From contig CAVZJB010000006.1 of assembly GCA_963775425.1 (NCBI GenBank), positions 32,001 to 96,000 of the forward strand: 64,000 nucleotides of DNA. The letters are read 5' to 3'. Of this stretch, positions 10,396 through 25,702 are shown piece after piece. Below the pieces are notes generated by a model, which made no database searches, was not told the origin of the DNA, and worked only from the letters and a program-made list of their open reading frames with translations. How positions within the stretch are numbered: position 1 is the stretch's first letter; each line of letters opens with the position of its first letter. The DNA is from an uncultured delta proteobacterium. GTDB lineage: Bacteria > Myxococcota > UBA727 > VGSZ01. A program made the translations under genes and the position numbers.

Positions 10396-13533
<3,138 letters not shown>

Positions 13534-13625
13534 CTGGCGCCCAACGTTCCCCGCGCGCGGCGTCACAAGTCAAGCAAACGGCCCCCCGTTGTGAATGCGA
13601 CCACCGACGGACACGTCCCTGCGCC

Positions 13626-14285: not shown

Positions 14286-15620
14286 CTACGGGTGCGCGGC
14301 CGCGGGCGCGGGCGCGTCGGCCTTGCCCGTCTCGCCCGCGCGGTCGAGCCCGAGCTTGGCGAGGATGGCGCCGACGAAGGTGTTCACGCTCACGATGGCG
14401 ATGACCAGCGACGCGAAGGGCCGCCCGATGGACGGCAGCGTGTCGGCGACGATGGTGGCGAGGCCGATGGTGACGCCCGCCTGCGCGATCAGGGTCATCC
14501 ACGCGCTCTTGCGCACCGCGGGCGGGTCCTTCGCAAGACGGTGCGCCACCTGCGTGGACGCGATGATGACGACGAGGCGCACCGCGCAGAACGCCAGCGC
14601 CAGCGGCCACAGGTGCACCAGCGACTGCAGGTCGATCCGCGCCCCCGCCGTGGCGAAGAACACCGTCATCACGCCCGACGCCGTCTTCTCCGACGTGTGC
14701 ACCAGGGTGGGCCCGAGCCTGGTGAGGTTGGTGACGACGAAGCCCGCCACCACGAACACGAGCAGCGTGTCGTAGCGCAGGTACGTACACAGCGCCGTCA
14801 TCGCGTAGCCGAACACCACGACGGCCAGGATGCGCTCCTTGGTGATGCGCAGCGCGAGCGCCAACACCAGCCCCACCGTGATCCCCGCCAGCGCCGACGT
14901 CAAAAGCTCCTGTCCGAGCTCCTGGAACGCGCGCAGCTCGAACGGCTCGCCGAGCACGGCGCCGCGCGCGAGCGCCAACGCGGCGGCGAACAGCGGGAGC
15001 GCGAGCACGTCGAGGAGCACCACGACGCCCAGCGCGTGCTCCGACAGCGGGCCCTTGGCGTGGGCCTCGGACACCACGGCCATCGTGACGCTCGGCGAGC
15101 GCGGCAACATGAACACGCCCCACAACAGGGCGAGCGCGATGACGGCGCCTTTGTCGACGGACGCCATGAACGGCACGATGGGCACGGCGACCATGAACGC
15201 CGCCCCCATGGCGAGCACGACGAGGAACGTCTGCACCCACGCCGACCACAGCACGCTCTTGTAGATGCGCACCAGCGACGGGAGCGTGATCTCGGCGCCC
15301 GCCTGCAGCGCGATGAGCGCGAGCGCGAGCACGTTGGCGAGCGCGATGTCCTCGAGGTCCGCGGTGCGCACGATGCCGAGCACCTGCGGCCCGGCGACCA
15401 CGCCCGCGACGAGCGCGCCGATGATGCGCGGCATGCGGAGCAGGGCCGACAACGAGCCGGCGGCGGCGCCGGCGACGACGAGGAAGCCGAGGGCGAACAG
15501 CGCCTGCCCGTCGCGCGGCAACATCCCGAAGCGCTTCAACAGCAGGTACGCCACGGCCACGAGCACCACGGCGACGACGCCCTCGATCACGGCGAGCGGC
15601 TTGGGGCGGTTGGCGCTCAC
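14286..15620 (-). CDS. Cation:proton antiporter (Na+/H+ exchanger / Kef-type CPA family)
   Basis: About 12 TM segments; LRMPRIIGALVAGVVAGP, IALQAGAEI, SPSVTMAV, VVLLDV, FFATAGA, AQAGVTIGLA; GTG 15620 overlaps the upstream stop. Confidence 0.85.
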   Translation of the reverse strand: MSANRPKPLAVIEGVVAVVLVAVAYLLLKRFGMLPRDGQALFALGFLVVAGAAAGSLSALLRMPRIIGALVAGVVAGPQVLGIVRTADLEDIALANVLALALIALQAGAEITLPSLVRIYKSVLWSAWVQTFLVVLAMGAAFMVAVPIVPFMASVDKGAVIALALLWGVFMLPRSPSVTMAVVSEAHAKGPLSEHALGVVVLLDVLALPLFAAALALARGAVLGEPFELRAFQELGQELLTSALAGITVGLVLALALRITKERILAVVVFGYAMTALCTYLRYDTLLVFVVAGFVVTNLTRLGPTLVHTSEKTASGVMTVFFATAGARIDLQSLVHLWPLALAFCAVRLVVIIASTQVAHRLAKDPPAVRKSAWMTLIAQAGVTIGLATIVADTLPSIGRPFASLVIAIVSVNTFVGAILAKLGLDRAGETGKADAPAPAAAHP

Positions 15621-16831
15621 GGGTGATCCCTCACCGAGCCGCCCGAGTGCACGTCGCCGCCGCTCACGTGCGCGGACGACGGGTGCCCCATGGGCGGCGC
15701 CTGCTTGTGGGCCGCGAGCGAGAACGTGAACGCCACGGCGTCGGCGACGGCGACGGCGATGATGACGGAGGGCAACAGGCTGGCGGCGTCGTCGACGTGG
15801 GCCTCGGCGAAGGCGGCGACGGCGACCAGCGGCGTGGTGGACGTGGCCACGGTGGCCGCGAGGCGCTCGAGGAGCGAGCGCCCGTCCACGAGCGCGAGGC
15901 TGACACCGAGCTGCACGAGGACGGCGCCCACGCCGAGGATGATGCCGGCGACGAGGTCGGCGAGGTCGAAGGTGGTGGACGCCGCGAGCAGCACCGTGAT
16001 CACGATGCGCACCGGCCGCTCCGTGAGCAGCAGCTTGTCGACGACGTCGGAGCCGCGGAAGGGGCCGGACACGGCGCCGAGCACGAAGCCGGCGACGGCG
16101 CCGGGCACGGCGGCGAGGCGCGCGAGGCCGGCGACGAGCGTGGCGACGGAGAGGTAGGCGACGGCGGCGGGGACCTTGGCGGGATCGCCCGGCGCGAGCA
16201 GGAGCTGCACGACGACGGCGCCGAGCACGCCGAAGCCCACGAGGACGAGCGTCTCCTGTGCGCCGCTCCACGCGGCGAACGCGCCGAGGGCGGCGGCCAG
16301 CACCACGAGCTCGGCGGTGGCGGCGAAGGCGGTGCGCGCGCGCGTGCCGTGGCGCTCGCCGGGCATGCCCGCGAGGCTGGCGCCGACGAGGACGGCGGCA
16401 GGGGCGACGCTGCCGGCGCTGACGAAGGGGTGGCCGGTGGCCGCCGCCGAAAGGAGCACGAGCGCGGCGATGCCGGACGCGACGACGGCGGCGGCGAAGG
16501 CGAGCGCGACGGCGCGGGCGACGCTGCGCGGCGGCCCCTTGTGCACGGGCCCGGAGACGTCGGCGGGGCGCGGCGCGGACGAGCGCTTGAGCGCCGCGGA
16601 CGCGCGAAGGCCCGCGAGGAGCGCGAGCCAGCAGATCCCGACGACGAGCGCGGTGCCGAGGCTCTCGAGCGTGCTGGGGGTGAGGAAGTCCAGCCCCGCC
16701 GGAGAGATGGCGAGGCCGAAGAGCACGAGCACCGGGGTGGTGGCGCGCGCGATCACCTCGTCGAGCGCGCCCTGCCGCGAGGCGAGCATGGCGAGCGACA
16801 GGAGCCCGAGGAGGACGAGCAGCGACGTCAT
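15617..16831 (-). CDS. Divergent cation:proton antiporter-like membrane protein
   Basis: Multi-TM; LFGLAISPAGLDFL, WLALLAGL, ERPVRIVITVLLA resemble the CPA fold; sits upstream of the canonical CPA gene. Confidence 0.6.
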   Translation of the reverse strand: MTSLLVLLGLLSLAMLASRQGALDEVIARATTPVLVLFGLAISPAGLDFLTPSTLESLGTALVVGICWLALLAGLRASAALKRSSAPRPADVSGPVHKGPPRSVARAVALAFAAAVVASGIAALVLLSAAATGHPFVSAGSVAPAAVLVGASLAGMPGERHGTRARTAFAATAELVVLAAALGAFAAWSGAQETLVLVGFGVLGAVVVQLLLAPGDPAKVPAAVAYLSVATLVAGLARLAAVPGAVAGFVLGAVSGPFRGSDVVDKLLLTERPVRIVITVLLAASTTFDLADLVAGIILGVGAVLVQLGVSLALVDGRSLLERLAATVATSTTPLVAVAAFAEAHVDDAASLLPSVIIAVAVADAVAFTFSLAAHKQAPPMGHPSSAHVSGGDVHSGGSVRDHP

Positions 16832-16838
16832 GTCGCCG

Positions 16839-18458
16839 TCACGACTCCCCGTCGGCGAGGGCGAGGTCGCCACGCTCGACGGCCTCGACCAGGGCGCGCA
16901 CGAGGGCCTCGCGGGCCCCGGGCTTGGCCATCGGGACGAAGAGGCAGCAGTGCAGCGAGGTGCCGCGCGCGTCGAGCAGCTCGACGCCGCCGTCGGCGCC
17001 CGCGCGCTTGGCGACGGCGCGGAGCGCGGCGTCGAGCTTGTCCATGGCGCGGTCGCGGCGCACGACGACGTCGAGCTCGGCGCGCGGCGCCTTGAGCTGC
17101 TTGACGGGCATGAACATGAACGACAGGTGCGGCACGTGGATGGTGCCGCCGTGGTCGGGCACCAGGAGCACGTCGATGAGGTTCACCGCGGCGACCTCGC
17201 CGCGCGCGGTGCCGACCTCCACCCAGTCGCCGGGCTTGACGGTGCCCCGCCACAAAAGGACGACGCCGGCGGCGGCGGACGCGAGCACGGGCACCGACGA
17301 CAGCAGCGCGCACCCGCCGGCGGCGAGGGCGAGGGTCTCGAGCGGTGTTCCGAAGCGACCGAACGCGGCGGCGATGACGAGCGGCGCGGCGAGCAACGCC
17401 ACGCCGGCGCCGACGGCGACGCGCACGGGGAACACGCGTCCGGGCCCGATGACGCGCGAAGGGACGCGGCCCTGGGCGACGCCGTCGAGGAGGAGCTGGA
17501 CGAAGCGCAGGCCGGCGCGGACGGCGACGAGGAGGATGGCCGCGAGGACGAGGCCGGGGACGGCGCCGACGAGGCCGTTGATGCCGTGGACGAGCGGCGC
17601 GGCGGCCCAGCCGCCGAGGCTCTTGAGCACCGGGCGGGTGGCTTCGAACTGGCCGAGGACGGCGCCCACGACGACGCCGGCGACGACGACGTACGCGAGC
17701 AAGCGCGCGCCGAGGAGGCCGGCGGCGAGGAGGCCGCGGAAGGCGTCCGACGACAGGACGGGCTGGCCGAAGATGCGCAGCGGGGAGGTGGGGACGCGCT
17801 CCTCGAGGCGGGTCTCCCACGCGGTGAACGCCTTGCGGAGCGTGCGCAGGGTGACGAGGCCGAGGACGCAGACGAGGACGGAAAAGAAGATGCGCAAGGC
17901 GAGGGCCTGGAGCGACGAGCGGCGCTCCTCCTCCTTGACGAAGGAGGCCATGCGCGTGTCGAGCTCGGCGGCGTAGCGCTCGAGGGTGGCGCCCTCGGCG
18001 GCGGCGTCGGCCTCGGTGAGGGTGGCGACGGATCGGCCGTGGACGTCGACCACGGCGACGTCGTCGACGACGCGCACCTCGGCCGCGGGCGCGCCCTCGA
18101 CGGCGTCGGCCTCGAGCGCGGCGGCGAGCGCGGCCCCGGCGTCGCGCGCGCGGGCGCGGGCGCTCTTGCCGAGCCGCGGCACGCGGAACGACAGCGGCGT
18201 CGGCCGCTCGTGGACGGAGACGACGACGGCCTCGGGCCGTGTGACGCCGGCGTCCTCGGTGGCGCGCTCCACGCTCGGCGCGCCCCCGTCCACGACGACG
18301 CGCCCCGCCGGGGCGGGCACGCCGCCGTCGTCCTTGACCGCGCCGCCCGCCGAAGCCGGCACGCCGGCGTCAAGGGCGGCGCGCCCCTCCGAAGCCGGCA
18401 CGCCGCCGTCGGGGACCTGGGCGATCCCGAGGGCCAGCACGAACAGGAGAGAGGTCAT
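16839..18458 (-). CDS. Mechanosensitive ion channel (MscS family) with N-terminal periplasmic domain
   Basis: Signal peptide, several TMs, ASAAAGVVLLWRGTVKPGDWVEVGTARGEVAAVNL...GGTIHVPH (MscS beta-domain). Confidence 0.82.
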   Translation of the reverse strand: MTSLLFVLALGIAQVPDGGVPASEGRAALDAGVPASAGGAVKDDGGVPAPAGRVVVDGGAPSVERATEDAGVTRPEAVVVSVHERPTPLSFRVPRLGKSARARARDAGAALAAALEADAVEGAPAAEVRVVDDVAVVDVHGRSVATLTEADAAAEGATLERYAAELDTRMASFVKEEERRSSLQALALRIFFSVLVCVLGLVTLRTLRKAFTAWETRLEERVPTSPLRIFGQPVLSSDAFRGLLAAGLLGARLLAYVVVAGVVVGAVLGQFEATRPVLKSLGGWAAAPLVHGINGLVGAVPGLVLAAILLVAVRAGLRFVQLLLDGVAQGRVPSRVIGPGRVFPVRVAVGAGVALLAAPLVIAAAFGRFGTPLETLALAAGGCALLSSVPVLASAAAGVVLLWRGTVKPGDWVEVGTARGEVAAVNLIDVLLVPDHGGTIHVPHLSFMFMPVKQLKAPRAELDVVVRRDRAMDKLDAALRAVAKRAGADGGVELLDARGTSLHCCLFVPMAKPGAREALVRALVEAVERGDLALADGES

Positions 18459-19723
18459 CGGTCGATCTCCGTGCCGACGAGGCCGAGGCCGGTGATCACC
18501 GGGATGACGTCGTCGATGCGGTCACCGACGAGGATCTCGTCGAGCGCCGCCGCCAGCGCCGCCGACGGGCCCCGGATGCGCACGCGCGACGGCCGCGGGC
18601 CGCCGTCCGCGGCGACGAGGATCGACAGCTCACCGGACGGCAACTCCAACGACGCCGTCGCCATTCCGGCCGGCGGCGCCGCCGGCAGCTCCAGGCGCGT
18701 CTCCGCCGGCGCCGACGCCAGCTTGGTCAGCGCCAGCGCGCACAGCTCACCCGCGGCGATGGTCTCGCGCAGCCGCACGCGCGCCCGCGCCCGCGTACAG
18801 CCACCGTCGACGACGACGGGGACGACGGGGACGTCGTCGTAGGCGAACACCGGCTCGTGTTTCCTCAGGTCGTCGCCGACGCCGCACGCGCGCAGCGCCG
18901 GGCCGGTGAGCCCGAGGTCGGCGGCCTCGGTCCGGGAGATGCGCCCGAGGCCCTCGAGGTGCGCGTCGAGGGCCGGCGTCTCCTCCACCGCCTGCGCCAC
19001 CTCGCGCACCGACGAGAGCAACCGCGGCAGCTCCCGCTGGATGCGCGCGGCCTCGTCGTCGTGGATGGGGCGCAGCAGGCCGCCGAAGGCGCGAAAAGCG
19101 TCCCCGGTGAGCACGCCGTCGAGGAGCCCGCGCATGGTGCGGGCGCTCTCGAGCAACGTCCGGCGCGCGCGCGACGTCGCGGGCGACAGCGGCGGCGTGC
19201 TCAGCAGCCGCAGGTGCTCCGCCATGCGAGACAGCTCGAGCGCCACCACCCGCCAGAGCTGGGCGCGGCGCGGCACGTTTTCGTCGACGCCGTGCAAGCG
19301 CTCGACGACGAGCGCCCACGCGAGCTCGTGCCCCACCGGGGACAGCGGGTTCACGCGCGCGAGCACCTCGAACACGTCGGCCCACGCCATCCCCTCGGCC
19401 GCCTTCTCGAGGCCCTGGTGCAGGAAGCCCACCTCGGGGTCGACGGTGACGAGGCGGTCGCCGTCGAGCTCGACGCGGACCTGCAAAGGGAACGGCATGG
19501 CCCGGTGTACGGGCCCGAAGGTCCACACGAGGTGCTTGGCGAGCGTCGTCGTCGACGCACCCACGAGCGTCCCGCGCGCGCCGACGCGAAACAGCTCCTC
19601 CTCGATGGCGGGCCGGAGCAGATCGTCGTCGTCGGGCGGCGACAGCGGCGCACCCGGCGCGTCGGACTCCGCGACGGGGTCGGGCAGGAGGGCGCCGGGG
19701 AGCACCTCGAGGATCTGCCTCAT
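18455..19723 (-). CDS. nuoD: NADH-quinone oxidoreductase subunit D homologue, degenerate quinone site
   Basis: TFGPVH, VELDGD, GFLHQGLEKAAE, VPRRAQ, ELSRMAEHL, GLTGPALRACGV, DLRK, ELPSGEL, C-terminal TEIDR. Confidence 0.85.
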   Translation of the reverse strand: MRQILEVLPGALLPDPVAESDAPGAPLSPPDDDDLLRPAIEEELFRVGARGTLVGASTTTLAKHLVWTFGPVHRAMPFPLQVRVELDGDRLVTVDPEVGFLHQGLEKAAEGMAWADVFEVLARVNPLSPVGHELAWALVVERLHGVDENVPRRAQLWRVVALELSRMAEHLRLLSTPPLSPATSRARRTLLESARTMRGLLDGVLTGDAFRAFGGLLRPIHDDEAARIQRELPRLLSSVREVAQAVEETPALDAHLEGLGRISRTEAADLGLTGPALRACGVGDDLRKHEPVFAYDDVPVVPVVVDGGCTRARARVRLRETIAAGELCALALTKLASAPAETRLELPAAPPAGMATASLELPSGELSILVAADGGPRPSRVRIRGPSAALAAALDEILVGDRIDDVIPVITGLGLVGTEIDR

Positions 19724-20271
19724 GGCGCATCCCGCGACGCCGGCGCGGCGTCCTCGATGATCACGGGCGGCGGCACCTCGTCGTCGAGGAGCGCCACCAG
19801 CGGCTGCTGCTTGGTGGCGCGGTAGTCCTTCCGCAGCGGGTGCCCCGCGAAGCCCGGGTAGAGCAGCAGCGGTCGCAGGTGCGGGTGGCCGTCGGGGTAG
19901 ATGCCGAACATCTCGTGCAGCTCGCGCTCGAGGGAGTCGGCGGCGGTGAACAGCGAGGTGAGGCTCGGGACGGTGGGGTCGTCGTCGGTGGCGTGCGTGA
20001 CGATGTGCGCGCGGTAGCCGAGCCGCGGGCTGCGCAGGCGCACGTGCACCTCGAAGCGAGGCTCGGCGCCGGGGCCGAGGTCCACGCCGGCGACGTCGAC
20101 GAGCAGCGACAGATCGGCGTCGGGATCGCGCTGGAGGAACGCGCACAGCTCGAGGAGCCGCTCGCGCTTGACGATGAAGCGGTCGCCGTCCTTGTGCGCG
20201 GCGCCGCTGTCGACGACGTGGGCGCCGATGCGGTTGCGTACGAGCCGTACGAGGTGTCCCGGGCGGCTCAC
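19720..20271 (-). CDS. nuoC: NADH-quinone oxidoreductase subunit C homologue
   Basis: DVAGVD, RFEV, PSLTSLF, ERELHEMFGI, GHPHLRPLL, GHPLRKDY. Confidence 0.92.
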   Translation of the reverse strand: MSRPGHLVRLVRNRIGAHVVDSGAAHKDGDRFIVKRERLLELCAFLQRDPDADLSLLVDVAGVDLGPGAEPRFEVHVRLRSPRLGYRAHIVTHATDDDPTVPSLTSLFTAADSLERELHEMFGIYPDGHPHLRPLLLYPGFAGHPLRKDYRATKQQPLVALLDDEVPPPVIIEDAAPASRDAP

Positions 20272-20702
20272 GGCGCGAGCCCCGGCAGCCGCGCGTCGAG
20301 CGCGTCGAGCGCGCGCTGCATCATGGCCGCGCTCGGCGGGTGTCCGCGCACGACGACGTCGATGGGCACGATCTGCGAGATGTCGGCGACCCCGGCGTAC
20401 AGGTGCGGGACCAGGATCCCCTCGGCCGGCTCGAGCTCCACGACCATCGCCGTCGCGGGCCGCGACATGGCCGCGTGCGTGCGCACCACGAACGGCGCGA
20501 GCTTGTGGCTGATGCGCCCGACGATGACGAGCAGATCCGCCTGGCGCGCCGCCGGCGCGTCGGTGGGCACGCCGATGGGCAGCAGGCGCGGCTGCGCCCA
20601 GGCCTCGGCGTCGCGGCCCGGGAGCGCGCCGACGACGGCGACGCCGACGCGGCTCTTGCGGCGCGCCCAGCGCATGATGGGGCCGAGCACGGCGTCAAGC
20701 AC
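20268..20702 (-). CDS. nuoB: NADH-quinone oxidoreductase subunit B homologue lacking all Fe-S cysteine ligands
   Basis: WARRKS, RQADLLVIVGRISHKLAP, IVPIDVVVRGHPP (canonical GCPP); no Cys in the protein; position between nuoA-like and nuoC. Confidence 0.8.
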   Translation of the reverse strand: MLDAVLGPIMRWARRKSRVGVAVVGALPGRDAEAWAQPRLLPIGVPTDAPAARQADLLVIVGRISHKLAPFVVRTHAAMSRPATAMVVELEPAEGILVPHLYAGVADISQIVPIDVVVRGHPPSAAMMQRALDALDARLPGLAP

Positions 20703-21069
20703 GCGGCGACCCCGCCGGCGGCTCGGCCTCGACGGCGCGCAGGGTGCCGCGCCGCCACGCCCACCACACCGCGGTGAGGAGCGCGCCGCCGCCGACGAGG
20801 ACGGGGAGCGCGGCGTCGTCGGCGGGGCCGGCGGCGAACACCAGGAGCACGCCGAGCCCGGCGGTGCCGGCGCAGGCGAGCGCGATGACCTCGAAGAGGT
20901 GCACGTGGAAGCGGTGCCGCCCGCCGCGCGGCTCGAGCTCGCGCAGCGCCGTCGCGGAGCGCGCGTTCATCTCCTTGGGACGCAACAGGACGTGCAGCCC
21001 CGTCACCGCCAGGCCTGCGGCGACGACGAACGCGGCGACGAACGCGACCGAGGCGAGCGCGGTGGCCAT
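20695..21069 (-). CDS. nuoA: NADH-quinone oxidoreductase subunit A homologue, divergent
   Basis: 124 aa, three TMs, LLRPK, RFHVHLF, C-terminal WWAWRRGTL (canonical YAWRKGAL); first gene of the nuoBCD-like run. Confidence 0.7.
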   Translation of the reverse strand: MATALASVAFVAAFVVAAGLAVTGLHVLLRPKEMNARSATALRELEPRGGRHRFHVHLFEVIALACAGTAGLGVLLVFAAGPADDAALPVLVGGGALLTAVWWAWRRGTLRAVEAEPPAGSPRA

Positions 21070-21264
21070 GCGCCCCTTGTTATCCGCAACGCCGCGCGGT
21101 GCCAACGAAGACCGGTCGGGCGCCCGTGTCACCGAGCCCCCGCCCGTCGCCGGCGGCGGCACCCGGCCGTTCGCCGTCGTCGCCCCGTGGTGGACGTGGT
21201 CGGCGCCGTGCGGCTTTGACGTCCGCTCGAGGACGGCACATCGTCGCCGCGCGGAGGCGAACAC

Positions 21265-22470
21265 ATGGTCACGGCGCAGGACATCCACGACGCCAGGGCG
21301 CGGCTCGGCGACTCCATCAAGGTCACGCCGATGTTCGCGTCGGCCGCGCTCTCCGACGCCACCGGTGGGCGCGTCTCCCTCAAGCTCGAGAACCTTCAGG
21401 TCACCGGCTCGTTCAAGGCCCGCGGCGCCGGGAACAAGCTCCTCGGCCTCACCCCCGAGGAGCGCCACAGGGGCGTCGTCGCCGCGTCGGCGGGAAACCA
21501 CGCGCAGGGCGTCGCCTACCACGCGCAGCGCCTCGGCATCCCCGCCACCATCGTGATGCCGGTGTTCACCCCGCTCATCAAGGTCACGCGTACGCAGTCC
21601 TACGGGGCCCACGTCGTGCTCTTCGGCGACAACTACGACGAGAGCTTCGACGAGGCGGCGCGGCTCGCTCGAGACAAAGGCTACGTCTACGTCCACGCCT
21701 ACGACGACGACGACGTCATCGCGGGGCAGGGCACGGTGGGCTTCGAGATCGTCGAGCAGATGCCCGACGTCGACGTCGTGCTCATCCCCATCGGCGGCGG
21801 CGGCCTCGCCGCGGGCGCCGCCGTCGCCCTCAAGTCGGCCCGGCCCCAGGTGAAGATCGTGGGCGTCGAGACCGCCGTGCTGCCTTCGATGAAGCGCGCC
21901 ATCGAGGCAGGCGAGCCCGTGCGCCTCCCCGCGGCCCGCACCCTCGCCGAGGGCATCGCCGTGCGGCTCGTCGGTGAGCGCACGCTGCCCCTGTGCAGGG
22001 ACCTCCTCGACGACATCGTCCTCGTCGAGGACGACGAGATCGCCCGCGCCATCCTGCTCCTCCTCGAGCGCGACAAGACCGTCGCCGAGGGCGCCGGCGC
22101 CGCCGGCGTCGCGGCCCTCATCGGCAAGAAGCTCGACGTGCGCGGCAAGAACGTGTGCGTGCTGCTCTGCGGCGGCAACATCGACGTCAACGTGCTCTCG
22201 CGCATCATCGAGCGCGGGCTCGTGGAGACCGGCCGGCTGACGCGCCTCGAGGTGCGCATCCCCGACCGCCCCGGCGCCCTCGCCGAGATGCTCGCCGAGG
22301 TCGCCCGGTGCCGGGCCAACGTCGTCAAGGTCCACCACGAGCGCGCCTTCGTGCGCGGCGGCCTTGGGCAGGTGGGCGTGCAGCTCGTCCTGGAGACCCG
22401 CGGGCCCGCCCACGCCGCGGAGCTCATCGAGGCGCTGCGCGCGCTGGGCCACGTGCCGGAGCCCCTGTAG
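21265..22470 (+). CDS. ilvA: Threonine ammonia-lyase (short form with C-terminal ACT domain)
   Basis: KLENLQVTGSFKARGA, ASAGNHAQGVA, GQGTVG, PIGGGGL, CGGNID, ACT domain DRPGALA. Confidence 0.95.
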   Translation: MVTAQDIHDARARLGDSIKVTPMFASAALSDATGGRVSLKLENLQVTGSFKARGAGNKLLGLTPEERHRGVVAASAGNHAQGVAYHAQRLGIPATIVMPVFTPLIKVTRTQSYGAHVVLFGDNYDESFDEAARLARDKGYVYVHAYDDDDVIAGQGTVGFEIVEQMPDVDVVLIPIGGGGLAAGAAVALKSARPQVKIVGVETAVLPSMKRAIEAGEPVRLPAARTLAEGIAVRLVGERTLPLCRDLLDDIVLVEDDEIARAILLLLERDKTVAEGAGAAGVAALIGKKLDVRGKNVCVLLCGGNIDVNVLSRIIERGLVETGRLTRLEVRIPDRPGALAEMLAEVARCRANVVKVHHERAFVRGGLGQVGVQLVLETRGPAHAAELIEALRALGHVPEPL

Positions 22471-22524: not shown

Positions 22525-23631
22525 ATGACCCGAACCCTCCTGTTCGCCGCGCCGGCTTTGGCCGCTGCGGCTCTCGCCGTCGCCGGCTGCCAGACCTCCG
22601 AGAAGGCCGCCGCCGTCAGCCCCGTCGCCGCCGCCGGCCACGCCGTCGACTGCAACGGCGCCTCCCTCGCCCTCGCCGACGACGCCGTCGTCGGCAAGCT
22701 CGACGGCAAGGCCATCACCTTCAAGGACCTCGGGGACGAGGCCAAGAACGCGGAGAAGAAGGCGCTGTACGAGTACTGCGACGCCGTCTCCTCGTCGCGC
22801 AACACGGCGCTCGACAACTACGTGACGCAAAAGCTCATCGACAAGGCCGCCGCCGCCGCCGGCAAGGACAGCGACGACTGGATGCGCGCCGAGGTGCAAA
22901 AGCGGGTCCCCACGCCGTCCGATGATCAGATGCGCGCGTTTTACGAGGAGAACAAGCGCGAGGGCATGCCGCCGTTCGAACAGATCGACGACAAGCTGAA
23001 GAGCCAGGTCTCCATGGTCATGCAGCGCGACAAGACCCAGGACGCCATGCGCGACATCCTCGAGAGCTTGAACAAGGGCGTGAACGTCGAGCGCACGCTG
23101 CCCGACGTCCGCTCGCCGCCGCGCGACGTCGACATCACCACCCACACCGCCACCAAGGGCACGGGCAAGGTCAAGGTCGTCGAGTTCGCCGACTTCCAGT
23201 GCCCCTACTGCAGCCGCGCGGCCAAGGAGGTGCACAAGCTCACCGAGAAGTACGGCGACAAGATCGAGTTCGCGTACCGGAACTTCCCGCTGCGCTCCAT
23301 CCATCCGTTCGCGCAGCACGCCGCCGAGGTCGGCCAGTGCGCGTTCGCGCAAGGCAAGTTCTGGGAGATGTCGGACAAGATGTACGGCGACCAGGACAAG
23401 CTCGACGACGACTCGCTGCACGCGGCTGCCAAGGACATCGGCCTCGACGTCGCCAAGCTCGACGCGTGCCTGAGCTCGGGCCAGGGCGCCAAGGAGGTCC
23501 AGGACGACGTGCAGAAGGCCGAGGACCTCGGCGTCGAGGGCACGCCCACCTTCTTCGTCAACGGCCGACAGCACCTGGGTGCTCCCACCGCCGAGGGCTT
23601 GTCCGCGGCCATCGACGCCGAGCTCAAGTGA
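22525..23631 (+). CDS. DsbA/thioredoxin-fold lipoprotein with SurA-like N-terminal helical region
   Basis: Lipobox AVAGC; VEFADFQCPYC, RNFPL, QGKFWEM, GVEGTPTFFVNG. Confidence 0.9.
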   Translation: MTRTLLFAAPALAAAALAVAGCQTSEKAAAVSPVAAAGHAVDCNGASLALADDAVVGKLDGKAITFKDLGDEAKNAEKKALYEYCDAVSSSRNTALDNYVTQKLIDKAAAAAGKDSDDWMRAEVQKRVPTPSDDQMRAFYEENKREGMPPFEQIDDKLKSQVSMVMQRDKTQDAMRDILESLNKGVNVERTLPDVRSPPRDVDITTHTATKGTGKVKVVEFADFQCPYCSRAAKEVHKLTEKYGDKIEFAYRNFPLRSIHPFAQHAAEVGQCAFAQGKFWEMSDKMYGDQDKLDDDSLHAAAKDIGLDVAKLDACLSSGQGAKEVQDDVQKAEDLGVEGTPTFFVNGRQHLGAPTAEGLSAAIDAELK

Positions 23632-23635
23632 GCGG

Positions 23636-25702
23636 ATGAGCGACGCCGGCCGCGCCGCCGACGACGCCTCCGCCGACGCTCCCGTGCGCCGGCGGGTCTC
23701 CCGTCGCCTGGCTTTCATCGCCGGTTGCGCCGCGCTGTTCATCGGGGCGCTCGCGTTCGTGCTCCTCGCGCCGCTCGAGAAGGCCACGGTGGAGCGCGTG
23801 GCCTCCGAGCAGATCGGCCTGCTCGCCGAGGGCGTCGCCGCGACGTACCAGGTCACCCAAGCGCCGGCGTCGACGGCGCCGGGCGACGATGTGACGAACC
23901 AGGAGGAGCCGCACGCCGAGCGCGAGCGCAAGGACGCCGGACATCGGGCCGCCGAGATCCTCGAGCAGCTCAAGCACGCCGAGAGCGTCGCCTGGATCGA
24001 CGTGCTCGACCACGACGGCGTCGTCCGCCAGACCACGCAGCCCGATCACCTCGGGCAGAAGCGCCCCGTGCCCCAGACGCTGCGGAGCGCGTCGCTCGTC
24101 CACGACGAGCTCGTCGTCAGCTACGCCATGCCCTTCACCCGGGCCTGCGTGCGCTGTCACGAGGCCAAGGACGATCCGCTCGGCGTGGTGCAGGTCGCGG
24201 TCAACCGCGACGTCGCCTTCCGGAGCCTCCAGCGCTTCCACCTGTTCTACGCGGCGGCGGTCTTCTTCGCGTTCGCCGTCCTCGTCGTCCTCGTCGCCGT
24301 CATCGCCAACCGCATGGTGGCCCGGCCCGTGTTCAAGCTCGCGCGGCTGATGAAGAAGGCGGAGCACGGCGACTTCCTCGTGCGCGCGCGCGTCGAGGGC
24401 GACGACGAGCTCGGCCAGCTCGCGCGCGCCTTCAACTCCATGCTGCGGGCCATCACCACGTTGAAGGCGAGCGAGATCGAGCGCGAGCTTGCGCTCAAGA
24501 GCGCCGAGGCGGAGCTGACGATGAAGTCGCAGCTCCAGGACGTCGCCGAGAGGCTCCAGCAATCGAACGCGGCGTTGCAGCGGCGCGTGCAGGCCCAGGG
24601 CCTCCTGATGGAGGCCGCGCACCGCCTGGGCAGCACCCTCGACAAGAGCGCCCTCGTCGAGCGCCTCGCGCGCGTGGTCGCCGACAACCTCGGCCGCCCG
24701 GACTTCGCCGTGTACCTCGTGAAGGAAGACGAGGACGGCGAGGCCGTGCTCGAGGTGCAAAACGCCGCCGGCGCCCTCGACGTCGCCGAGGTGCGGGCCG
24801 CGCGCTTCAAGGTCGGCGACGGCGTCGCGGGCCTCGTCGCCGACACCGGCGCCCCCGTCCTCGTCGGCGACCTCACGGACCCGCCGCCGAACCTGGTGCG
24901 CCTGCGGGAGCACAAGGAGCCGTTTCCGCGCGAGGGCTCGCTGCTCGTGGTCCCCATGCTGCACAAGGGGCGCGTGGTGGGCGTGCTCGCGTTCTATGCG
25001 CCGACGGCCAAGGCGTTCGACGCCGACGACACCGCGCTGTTGCAGGCGCTCGGGGCGCAGGCGGCCATGGCCGTGGTGAACGCCGACCTCTACCAGACCA
25101 CCCTCGAGCTCTCGGTCACCGACACGCTCACCGAGCTCATGAACCGGCGCGCGCTGAACCGCATCCTCGACGCGGAGCTCGTCCGGGCGCAGCGCTTCGG
25201 GACGCCGCTCGTGGTGCTCATGCTCGATGTCGATCACTTCAAGCAATACAACGATCGCATGGGCCACCTCCTCGGCGACGAGGCGCTGCGGGCGGTGGCG
25301 TTCGCGCTGGCGTCGTCGGTGCGCAAGGTGGACGCGGTGGCGCGCTTCGGCGGCGAGGAGTTCTGCGTGGTGCTCCCGCGCACCGAAGAGCAGTCGGGGC
25401 TCGACGTCGCCGACAAGCTGCTCAAGGCCGTGCGCGCCCTGACCGTGCCGGGGGCGGACAACCAGCCCCTTGGCTGCATGAGCATCAGCGTGGGCGTGGC
25501 TGTGTACCCGGTGGACATGCCCCCGGCAATCGACGGCTCCCCCGTCGACGTCATCCTCGACGCCGCCGACAAGGCCGCCTACGAGGCCAAGCGCCGCGGC
25601 CGAAACCGCGTGGTGACGGCCGGGGACGTCTCGGGGCGGCCGCGCAAGCCCAAGCTGGACGAGCCGGCGCTCGGCGAAAAGACGACCAAGCTCCTGTCGT
25701 GA
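23636..25702 (+). CDS. Membrane diguanylate cyclase: periplasmic CxxCH sensor + HAMP + GAF + GGDEF
   Basis: Two TMs flanking CVRCH; HAMP DDELGQLARAFNSM; GAF; DVDHFKQYND, RKVD I-site, ARFGGEEF. Confidence 0.92.
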   Translation: MSDAGRAADDASADAPVRRRVSRRLAFIAGCAALFIGALAFVLLAPLEKATVERVASEQIGLLAEGVAATYQVTQAPASTAPGDDVTNQEEPHAERERKDAGHRAAEILEQLKHAESVAWIDVLDHDGVVRQTTQPDHLGQKRPVPQTLRSASLVHDELVVSYAMPFTRACVRCHEAKDDPLGVVQVAVNRDVAFRSLQRFHLFYAAAVFFAFAVLVVLVAVIANRMVARPVFKLARLMKKAEHGDFLVRARVEGDDELGQLARAFNSMLRAITTLKASEIERELALKSAEAELTMKSQLQDVAERLQQSNAALQRRVQAQGLLMEAAHRLGSTLDKSALVERLARVVADNLGRPDFAVYLVKEDEDGEAVLEVQNAAGALDVAEVRAARFKVGDGVAGLVADTGAPVLVGDLTDPPPNLVRLREHKEPFPREGSLLVVPMLHKGRVVGVLAFYAPTAKAFDADDTALLQALGAQAAMAVVNADLYQTTLELSVTDTLTELMNRRALNRILDAELVRAQRFGTPLVVLMLDVDHFKQYNDRMGHLLGDEALRAVAFALASSVRKVDAVARFGGEEFCVVLPRTEEQSGLDVADKLLKAVRALTVPGADNQPLGCMSISVGVAVYPVDMPPAIDGSPVDVILDAADKAAYEAKRRGRNRVVTAGDVSGRPRKPKLDEPALGEKTTKLLS

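Follow-up and report, generated by a model that had tools for sequence, protein, structure and literature searches.

Introduction

To our knowledge, complex I and its relatives (NDH-1, Fpo, MBH, MBS, FHL and Mrp) have all been described as energy converters. Here we analyse a stretch of 64,000 nucleotides from a myxococcotal metagenome bin (hereafter the window; assembly GCA_963775425.1, contig CAVZJB010000006.1, positions 32,001 to 96,000), in which genes resembling those of the complex I subunits NuoA (weakly), NuoB, NuoC and NuoD, here A', B', C' and D', are joined in a presumed operon with three further genes. These encode a channel of the MscS family (MscS'), a membrane protein (X404) predicted to have the fold of a cation:proton antiporter (CPA), and a CPA of the Na_H_Exchanger family. 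We propose that the four Nuo-like proteins belong to a residue-dead paralogue of complex I kept for a structural or regulatory role tied to ion homeostasis, a reading to which we give somewhat better than even chances.

The closest described system is complex I itself (NuoA-N/NDH-1) in its 11-subunit form. The genome has a divergent set of homologues of its A (weak), B, C, D, H, J, K, L, M and N subunits. The best sequence matches of this set in the Protein Data Bank (PDB) are NuoD for D' (131 bits), NuoH for H' (122 bits) and NuoN for N' (73 bits), and a model places H' against A', B' and D' with complex-I-like contacts. Unlike complex I, however, the set lacks the ligands of the iron-sulfur cluster N2, the His and Tyr of the quinone (Q) site, the Glu residues of NuoH and NuoK, the Lys/Glu relay of NuoL, NuoM and NuoN, as well as NuoI and NuoEFG. 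Its genes are distributed over three loci, and those of the peripheral arm share an operon with channel and antiporter genes.

Several relatives and analogues are also relevant. In group 4 [NiFe]-hydrogenases, the large subunit has N- and C-terminal CxxC metal-binding motifs. D' has three isolated Cys residues and no CxxC motif anywhere, and it matches NuoD better than HycE (84.6 bits) or MbhL (67.5 bits). Mrp is a complex-I-related multisubunit membrane assembly that serves ion homeostasis without redox chemistry; it is not known to have NuoB, NuoC, NuoD or NuoH homologues and depends on conserved Lys and Glu residues of MrpA and MrpD, whereas in the divergent set the Lys/Glu relay residues are replaced. 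The nearest functional precedent, an enzyme-derived partner of an ion exporter, may be KefF and KefG, ancillary regulators of the CPA2 antiporters KefC and KefB that have an oxidoreductase fold and are encoded next to the antiporter. Each of them, however, is a single small soluble flavin-binding protein of unrelated fold and without homology to the proteins considered here, and the likeness is one of analogy only.

According to two accounts, Ehr belongs to the superfamily of complex I and group 4 hydrogenases, has a large subunit without metal-site ligands and is of unknown function; it is hydrogenase-related, has Mrp-type antiporter-like subunits in its cluster and is thought to be redox-coupled with a partner dehydrogenase (PMC6349859, PMC4758237). 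D' likewise lacks metal ligands. In contrast to Ehr as characterized there, the divergent set is closest to Nuo, its small subunit has no Fe-S ligands, the relay is gone, no redox partner is adjacent and the antiporter-like subunits are encoded at another locus. Judged by its defining residues, the set would be neither complex I nor a [NiFe]-hydrogenase, and not clearly Ehr as described there. A common Mrp ancestor is mentioned in another account (PMC8165549). Full-text literature searches yielded no account of a Cys-less NuoB and NuoCD beside mscS/CPA genes, nor of a residue-dead complex I paralogue, although the original description of Ehr and the supplements of PMC6349859 (on the subunit composition of Ehr) and PMC4758237 (on deltaproteobacterial nuo clusters) could qualify this.

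NuoB- and NuoD-like proteins without cluster N2 and quinone-site residues

Translation of the seven minus-strand open reading frames (ORFs; 14286-21069) revealed no internal stops. Their order recurs in other genomes, so they are not chance products of DNA of about 75% G+C, in which long spurious ORFs are plentiful. Most neighbouring genes overlap at their start and stop codons (A'/B', 20695-20702; B'/C', 20268-20271; C'/D', 19720-19723; D'/MscS', 18455-18458; X404/CPA, 15617-15620), while MscS' and X404 are separated by 7 nt (16832-16838), given that X404 starts at the ATG at 16831, the start used by its relatives. An earlier note on this DNA, made from the sequence alone, had given the same ORFs, coordinates and junctions, and the translations bear it out.

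Four Cys residues of NuoB (the tandem CC, a central Cys and the Cys of CPP) are taken here to be the N2 ligands. B' has no Cys at all, and its alignment with the two canonical NuoB proteins of the genome shows every N2 column (tandem CC, third Cys and CPP Cys) to be replaced. Among 44 B' proteins found in databases, 36 have no Cys at any of these columns, seven keep the tandem CC and two further Cys, and the remaining one is partial. Among those that keep the Cys are the B' of two small genomes of about 42% G+C from genus g12 (G018 and G035); there, B' has all four N2 Cys, yet D' has Pro at both quinone-site positions. In the window, Pro77 and Pro126 of D' align to His38 and Tyr87 of Thermus thermophilus Nqo4 (ungapped alignment to 2fug_4), whereas both canonical NuoD proteins of the genome keep the His and Tyr. 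In 21 family sequences P77 is invariant and P126 nearly so, and Pro is also found in the members from genera g12 and g4. The absence of N2 and quinone-site residues, as implied in the earlier note, is thus substantiated.

A database search delimited the D' family well: it comprises 49 full-length proteins of 35-100% identity, followed by a sharp fall to at most 30% identity, and all members come from Myxococcota or 'Deltaproteobacteria' metagenome bins. Among 21 aligned D' proteins, 58 columns are invariant, including those of a remodelled loop, GP-x-H-R-A-[LM]-P-F. A conserved acidic N-terminal extension (PPDDDD, within residues 1-60, with invariant P30, D31 and D32, then R37, P38 and E41) is a further feature of main-clade D'; it has no counterpart in canonical NuoD and is absent from the D' of g12. 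In a quick tree, 51 main-clade D' proteins (g4 included) lie on one side of a branch with SH-aLRT support of 98, canonical NuoD is separated by another (99), and D' of g12 falls between the two on a long branch (1.9); since the sequences differ strongly in composition and the root is unknown, no order of events is drawn from this tree.

The family profiles reflect the same divergence. B' scores 21.2 bits against PF01058, under the cut-off of 27, C' scores 111.9 bits against PF00329, being one of exactly three matches to that family in the genome, and D' scores 113.1 bits against PF00346. All three stay under the curated NCBIfam cut-offs (B', 48.3 vs 116; C', 95.6 vs 122.45 for TIGR01961; D', 201.1 vs 360). 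A' has no Pfam or NCBIfam match, and PF00507 does not match it either. It opens the cluster in eight loci and shares with canonical NuoA a C-terminal motif, W-x-W-[RK]-[RK]-G-x-L; in hhalign comparisons it is colinear with the two canonical NuoA proteins of the genome (25-111 vs 24-115), the similarity being weak (E 0.0015, probability 16%). The assignment of A' as a clear NuoA was rejected, because the hidden Markov model of A' matches no canonical NuoA in the genome, PF00507 fails and the hhalign match is weak.

A proposed third, dispersed set of complex I subunits

Whole-genome scans found exactly three homologues each of NuoB, NuoC, NuoD, NuoH, NuoJ and NuoK, and three groups of NuoL/M/N. 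They can be sorted into a canonical set split over contigs C12 and C13, an 11-subunit operon at C16:758-770 kb, and a divergent set located on C6, at C16:1036 kb and on C11. The first two are the separate canonical nuo genes for which the earlier note had proposed to look. That note had also seen no nuoH, nuoI, nuoJ-N or NADH-input genes following the operon. Family scans found no nuoH, nuoL/M/N or nuoF match on the contig of the window, but the premise that NuoH and NuoL/M/N are missing is not supported for the genome, where an equally divergent orphan NuoH' and a NuoJ'K'L'M'N' cluster are encoded on other contigs (Table 1). Canonical genes are scattered along C12, with nuoH at 114.7 kb, nuoF at 144.7 kb, nuoI at 151.6 kb and nuoABCD at 161.2-164.6 kb, and nuoJ-N lie at C13:31-35 kb; the operon of the 11-subunit type on C16 holds four PF00361 genes.

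The divergent membrane subunits go together with D'. Of the 38 species genomes surveyed in the class that holds this genome, 13 have D'. H' scores at least 186 bits in nine class genomes, every one a D' holder, and a tenth D' holder has a fragment of it at a contig end; all other NuoH matches reach at most 92 bits, and none of the 25 class genomes without D' has H'. N' scores at least 109 bits in ten class genomes, nine of them D' holders, and the order J'K'L'M'N' is kept in G002, G006, G013 and G017. Outside the class, one of 113 sampled genomes of the phylum gave a weak D' match (G097; 31% identity, 145 bits), which may be a canonical NuoD. Since matching H' and J'-N' co-occur with D', the four genes of the window would be part of a whole paralogous complex and not a free-standing Q-module, as the earlier note had supposed. 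No redox partner was found beside any of the three loci examined.

H' adjoins lolA or lies within a few kb of it in six genomes from four families, the two genes being directly adjacent in G018 and G012. Genomes of very different kinds are found within the same order, those of 8 Mb and 75% G+C alongside others of 0.3-3.4 Mb (family f6 among them), with G018 and G035 at about 42% G+C. The small g12 genomes have A'B'C'D' with intact N2 Cys, together with H' and N', and G018 has a canonical complex I as well.

Residue losses in the membrane subunits

Alignment columns for the membrane subunits were set by the canonical paralogues of the genome itself. H' aligns end to end with Escherichia coli NuoH and with Nqo8. 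In all seven H' sequences the positions of Nqo8 Glu163 and Glu213 are hydrophobic, and the loop between transmembrane helices (TM) 5 and 6 (PFD...EAE) is rewritten. K' of this genome has Ala and Trp at the two canonical NuoK Glu positions; among seven K' sequences the first Glu is kept only in G017 and the second in none. In L', M' and N' of this genome the TM5 Glu is gone, the TM7 Lys is replaced by Arg (L', M') or Met (N'), M' and N' are also without the TM8 Lys, and at the TM12 position L' has Val, M' has Leu and N' has Arg. The losses in N' are common to all seven sequences, in which the TM12 Arg is conserved. As judged by these alignments, we have shown that every part of the set has lost the residues on which the enzyme or pump relies: the N2 Cys (in this clade), the equivalents of His38 and Tyr87, the NuoH and NuoK Glu and the L/M/N relay.

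A predicted fit of H' to A', B' and D'

Whether the scattered products could still belong together was addressed by complex prediction for A' (residues 1-115), B' and D' with H' as partner, using a family alignment for each protein. All three runs gave an ipSAE of 0.74, compared with 0.00 and 0.00 in controls with the partner replaced and 0.49 with D' replaced. The mark that the H' model passed is reached by 58 of 80 solved complexes and by 2 of 110 mismatched pairs. At least 85% of the contacts agree between runs, with a partner pLDDT of 75-76. In the model, the D' loop 73-77 contacts H' 204-210, as in complex I, and A' 3-31 also contacts H'. The prediction supports, without showing it, that H' binds A', B' and D'.

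Selection on the divergent set

The ratio of nonsynonymous to synonymous substitution rates (dN/dS) was estimated by NG86, which overestimates the ratio when the G+C content of third codon positions is 0.87 or more, so that the comparison with control genes is what counts. Within genus g3 the ratio was 0.31 for B', 0.33 for C', 0.22 for D', 0.34 for MscS', 0.31 for X404 and 0.21 for H'; between G006 and G002 it was 0.42 for J', 0.26 for K', 0.30 for L', 0.23 for M' and 0.19 for N', compared with 0.20 for the control LolA. Between the window and its counterpart L007 the values were 0.52 for D' and 0.49 for the neighbouring PALP threonine-dehydratase-like gene. Genus g4 stands apart: its ratios are higher (D', 0.51; C', 0.44), its D' is more divergent, its proteins are more eroded, and a search with the H' profile did not find H' in its genomes. 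In the genomes examined from outside g4, none of the genes is broken. From these comparisons we have shown that all ten nuo-like genes are open, occur together across genomes and are under the same purifying selection as their ordinary neighbours. Family conservation and dN/dS equal to the controls rule out recent pseudogenisation; the residue losses are old, as the reading in the earlier note requires, with 36 of 44 B' lacking Cys at every N2 column and Pro in every D' examined.

The channel and antiporter genes

MscS' scores 27.2 bits against PF00924 (cut-off 20.2), a family that nine of its 11 family members match, and its AlphaFold2 (AF2) model (pLDDT 74.3) retrieved MscS-family channels in 50 of the 50 PDB matches listed by Foldseek (best E 1.3e-10). 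MscS' has the MscS beta-domain and, by its model, the fold of an MscS protomer; its long N-terminal region is probably periplasmic. For the last gene, the match to PF00999 is clear (73.3 bits, cut-off 26.2), while TIGR00932 (CPA2), at 28.8 bits, is far under its cut-off. Its Asp204, located in a TM5-like motif (LLDVL), is invariant in eight of eight family members and is, by motif, presumably the TM5 ion-site residue. With this residue in place, CPA is probably active as an antiporter. Sequence searches of the PDB with MscS' and CPA gave no matches.

X404 has no Pfam or NCBIfam match and no recognisable CPA sequence motifs. Its AF2 model has a pLDDT of 81.6 and a pTM of 0.81, and the top Foldseek matches are MjNhaP1, PaNhaP, NapA and NHA2 (E 5e-5, TM-scores 0.5-0.6). 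Eighteen of its 30 Atlas look-alikes are clusters carrying PF00999 (25% of members for the listed row). Compared with the neighbouring CPA by sequence, X404 gave nothing in BLASTP and 47 N-terminal columns only in hhalign (E 0.038). We regard X404 as CPA-like by its predicted fold only. A role for it as a NuoH-like anchor was considered and ruled out, since the predicted fold is that of a CPA and not of NuoH.

Synteny of the two blocks

The earlier note had left it to other genomes whether mscS and CPA genes are genuinely linked to the nuo-like block, and the link does recur, in three families of genomes. The order A'-B'-C'-D'-MscS'-X404(-CPA) is found in G000, G002, G006 and G013, and in G013 all seven genes have 4-nt overlaps. 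Wherever D' and mscS' adjoin, at four loci from two families (the window, L007, L029 and L030), they overlap by 4 nt. In G017, A'B'C'D' lies upstream of the triad MscS'-X404-CPA on the same strand, 8.2 kb from it. The window, G013 and G017 have the last CPA gene, as does G012, where it lies on a separate contig. In genera g12 and g4 A'B'C'D' ends its operon, and at the two g4 loci examined D' is not followed by a triad.

In three bins (L038, L040 and L041, from G032, G024 and G012) the contig breaks off 700-770 bases upstream of where mscS' starts, which suggests that the stretch before the triad is hard to assemble or repeated.

Interpretation

Taken together, these results lead us to propose that A'B'C'D' form the NuoA and peripheral-arm portion of a third copy of complex I, lineage-specific and dispersed, which comprises ten subunits, lacks only NuoI and the NADH module, and is encoded at three loci (in the window, on C16 and on C11). 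The ten subunits may still assemble into a membrane complex shaped like complex I, for which the evidence is the modelled docking of H'. Such an assembly would be a pseudoenzyme, with neither redox chemistry nor the canonical proton relay. The weakest step concerns its role: the same-strand position and the start/stop overlaps with genes for a channel, a degenerate protein of CPA fold and a probably active CPA hint at ion or osmotic homeostasis, which the complex might serve, most likely as a regulatory or scaffolding platform with no catalysis of its own. A more specific version, in which the conformational-coupling machinery (Q-module loops, NuoH' and the L'/M'/N' arm) has been re-used as a redox-free transducer that gates or organises MscS' and the CPA-fold proteins, strikes us as rather improbable; if true, a respiratory complex would have become the regulator of an ion-release system.

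A number of observations weigh against this interpretation. The evidence is wholly computational. The source genome is a metagenome bin (94.55% complete, 2.79% contaminated), and so are all the genomes compared. H' and J'-N' are tied to A'-D' by counting, by co-occurrence among related and hence non-independent genomes, and by one model. Three of the genomes that the H' profile scored highest had been used to build it, N' scores are less cleanly bimodal, and no D' was seen in G034, an N' holder that is 73% complete. Because structures of complex I have been solved, the docking pass may reflect likeness to them. A third NuoI was not found in the genome, the two matches of at least 92 bits both belonging to the other two sets; a Cys-less NuoI' might escape the search model, or the complex may be differently built. 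A' is weakly NuoA-like. The roles of the residues discussed (N2 Cys, Q site, E-channel Glu and antiporter Lys/Glu relay) are those given in the complex I literature, and one canonical NuoL of the genome also has no aligned TM5 Glu, so single-column assignments carry some error. As for the operon, G006 has no last CPA; the triad occurs without adjoining nuoA'B'C'D' in G007, G009, G032, G033 and G024, in none of which D' was found at E<=1e-40 (X404 itself was matched by tblastn in only two of the five); and A'B'C'D' occurs without the triad in genus g12 (G018, G035) and genus g4.

Since each module also occurs alone, it is less likely that the divergent set is an obligate subunit of the channel or the antiporters, and an obligate form of the partnership suggested in the earlier note is not supported. 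The same separability bears on the idea that the cofactor-less NuoA'B'C'D' docks directly, as a cytoplasmic regulatory cap, on MscS' and/or the CPA-fold proteins to form one complex. The conserved 4-nt overlap of D' and mscS', the acidic D' extension of the triad clade that the triad-less g12 D' lacks, and an analogy to the oxidoreductase-fold KefF acting with KefC would all fit such a cap. However, besides the independent occurrence of the two modules, dedicated H' and J'-N' co-occur with D', H' is modelled onto a surface that would otherwise be free for docking, and no obvious stoichiometry would be common to a heptameric MscS, a dimeric CPA and one Q-module. We consider direct docking quite unlikely. 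A stand-alone Q-module, for its part, is hard to maintain when divergent H' and J'-N' accompany D' and H' passes the docking against A', B' and D'. The dedicated membrane subunits also argue against an alternative Q-module, assembly factor or decoy acting on canonical complex I. The genome does hold two other complex I sets, and G018 has canonical NuoD and NuoH, but G013, which is 96% complete, has the full operon, H' and J'-N' and no match to canonical NuoD or to NuoH of canonical strength. A modulator of the real complex I, another suggestion of the earlier note, is thereby disfavoured, and we regard any action of this kind as very improbable.

It may also be asked whether the divergent set does something new or nothing at all. 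A new transport or sensing activity, directed at another ion or at a hydrophobic ligand such as a quinone or lipid in the former Q tunnel and running in parallel with MscS' and CPA in one ion-homeostasis regulon, would explain purifying selection on all ten genes. It would also fit the replacement of lost Lys residues, which is not random and favours conserved Arg (TM12 of N' in seven of seven sequences; TM7 of L' and M'), and the 58 invariant D' columns, the remodelled loop among them. Moreover, g12 keeps the N2 Cys and is already without the Q-site and relay residues, which suggests stepwise functional change rather than simple decay. On the other hand, the sequence points to no particular ligand, ion site or activity, and the change of the NuoH and NuoK acidic residues to hydrophobic ones argues against an ion path of a known kind. 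In our estimate a new activity is unlikely, if worth keeping in mind. That the genes are decaying, functionless remnants of a duplicated complex I might be concluded from the fact that every canonical functional residue examined is gone, and g4, with its more divergent D', raised dN/dS, undetected H' and the triad missing after D' at two loci, looks that way. Outside g4, however, the genes are intact with dN/dS of 0.1-0.4, equal to control genes, the D' family has kept its invariant columns over 35-100% identity, and start/stop overlaps are conserved; we consider decay to be an extremely improbable explanation. The interpretation that we prefer remains that of a non-catalytic complex I paralogue with a structural or regulatory role.

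If it is correct, the divergent set would be a rare case of a bacterial multisubunit membrane pseudoenzyme, with ten subunits under ordinary purifying selection. It would serve as an experiment of nature on the elements of complex I architecture that are retained for structural reasons only, and would provide an evolutionary series in which g12 still has the N2 Cys but neither Q-site nor relay residues, none of these is left in the main clade, and g4 looks decaying. The operon would also provide a concrete hypothesis of a non-respiratory role in ion or osmotic homeostasis. Public records label B' and D' 'NADH-quinone oxidoreductase subunit B/D'; in metabolic reconstructions they should not be taken for a respiratory complex.

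Features of the locus and its surroundings

The genes discussed here and their neighbours are listed in Table 1. A scan for promoters found no sigma-70-like sites, and such a scan is uninformative at 75% G+C; with no such site, the promoter is placed by position only. Four terminator-like sites were found, all within genes and not above shuffled sequences, in a scan that is equally uninformative at this G+C content.

Table 1. Coordinates of the operon, its neighbours and the membrane-subunit loci of the divergent set (window positions unless a contig is given)
Feature	Location	Strand	Remarks
A', NuoA-like	20695..21069	-	124 aa; three hydrophobic helices, membrane protein
B', NuoB-like	20268..20702	-	144 aa; zero Cys
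C', NuoC homologue (30 kDa subunit)	19720..20271	-	183 aa; PF00329
D', NuoD-like	18455..19723	-	422 aa; PF00346
MscS', channel family	16839..18458	-	539 aa; PF00924
X404, CPA-like fold	15617..16831	-	404 aa; polytopic membrane protein, predicted fold
CPA, Na_H_Exchanger family	14286..15620	-	444 aa; PF00999
Presumed operon promoter region	21070..21264	.	195-bp intergenic region between A' and the divergent PALP+ACT gene; placed by position
PALP+ACT protein, threonine-dehydratase-like	21265-22470	+	Divergent neighbour of A'; also a neighbour in G006 (L007)
SurA_N/DsbA-like thioredoxin protein	22525-23631	+	DsbA-like gene also a neighbour in G013
HAMP-GAF-GGDEF diguanylate cyclase	23579-25702	+	
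Response-regulator/DUF4388/TPR protein	10396-13566	-	1056 aa; downstream of the operon
Orphan NuoH'	C16:1035922-1036932 (locus L032:4998-5936)	+	PF00146, 100 bits; few kb from lolA
J'K'L'M'N' cluster	C11:401943-408251 (locus L049:5944-12252)	+	42, 52, 34, 41 and 74 bits

Just upstream of J'-N' and on the opposite strand (L049:4571-5902) lies a gene for a putative lipoprotein of 443 aa with a long Gly-Glu dipeptide repeat. In G017, the 8.2-kb insert between A'B'C'D' and the triad (L043:3293-11513) has two ORFs in the direction of the operon, of 1452 and 690 aa, and a third, of 406 aa, on the opposite strand. In G006, the place of CPA after X404 is taken by a 541-aa fusion of an exosortase (EpsH) and an Rce1-like CAAX protease (L007:14385-16010).

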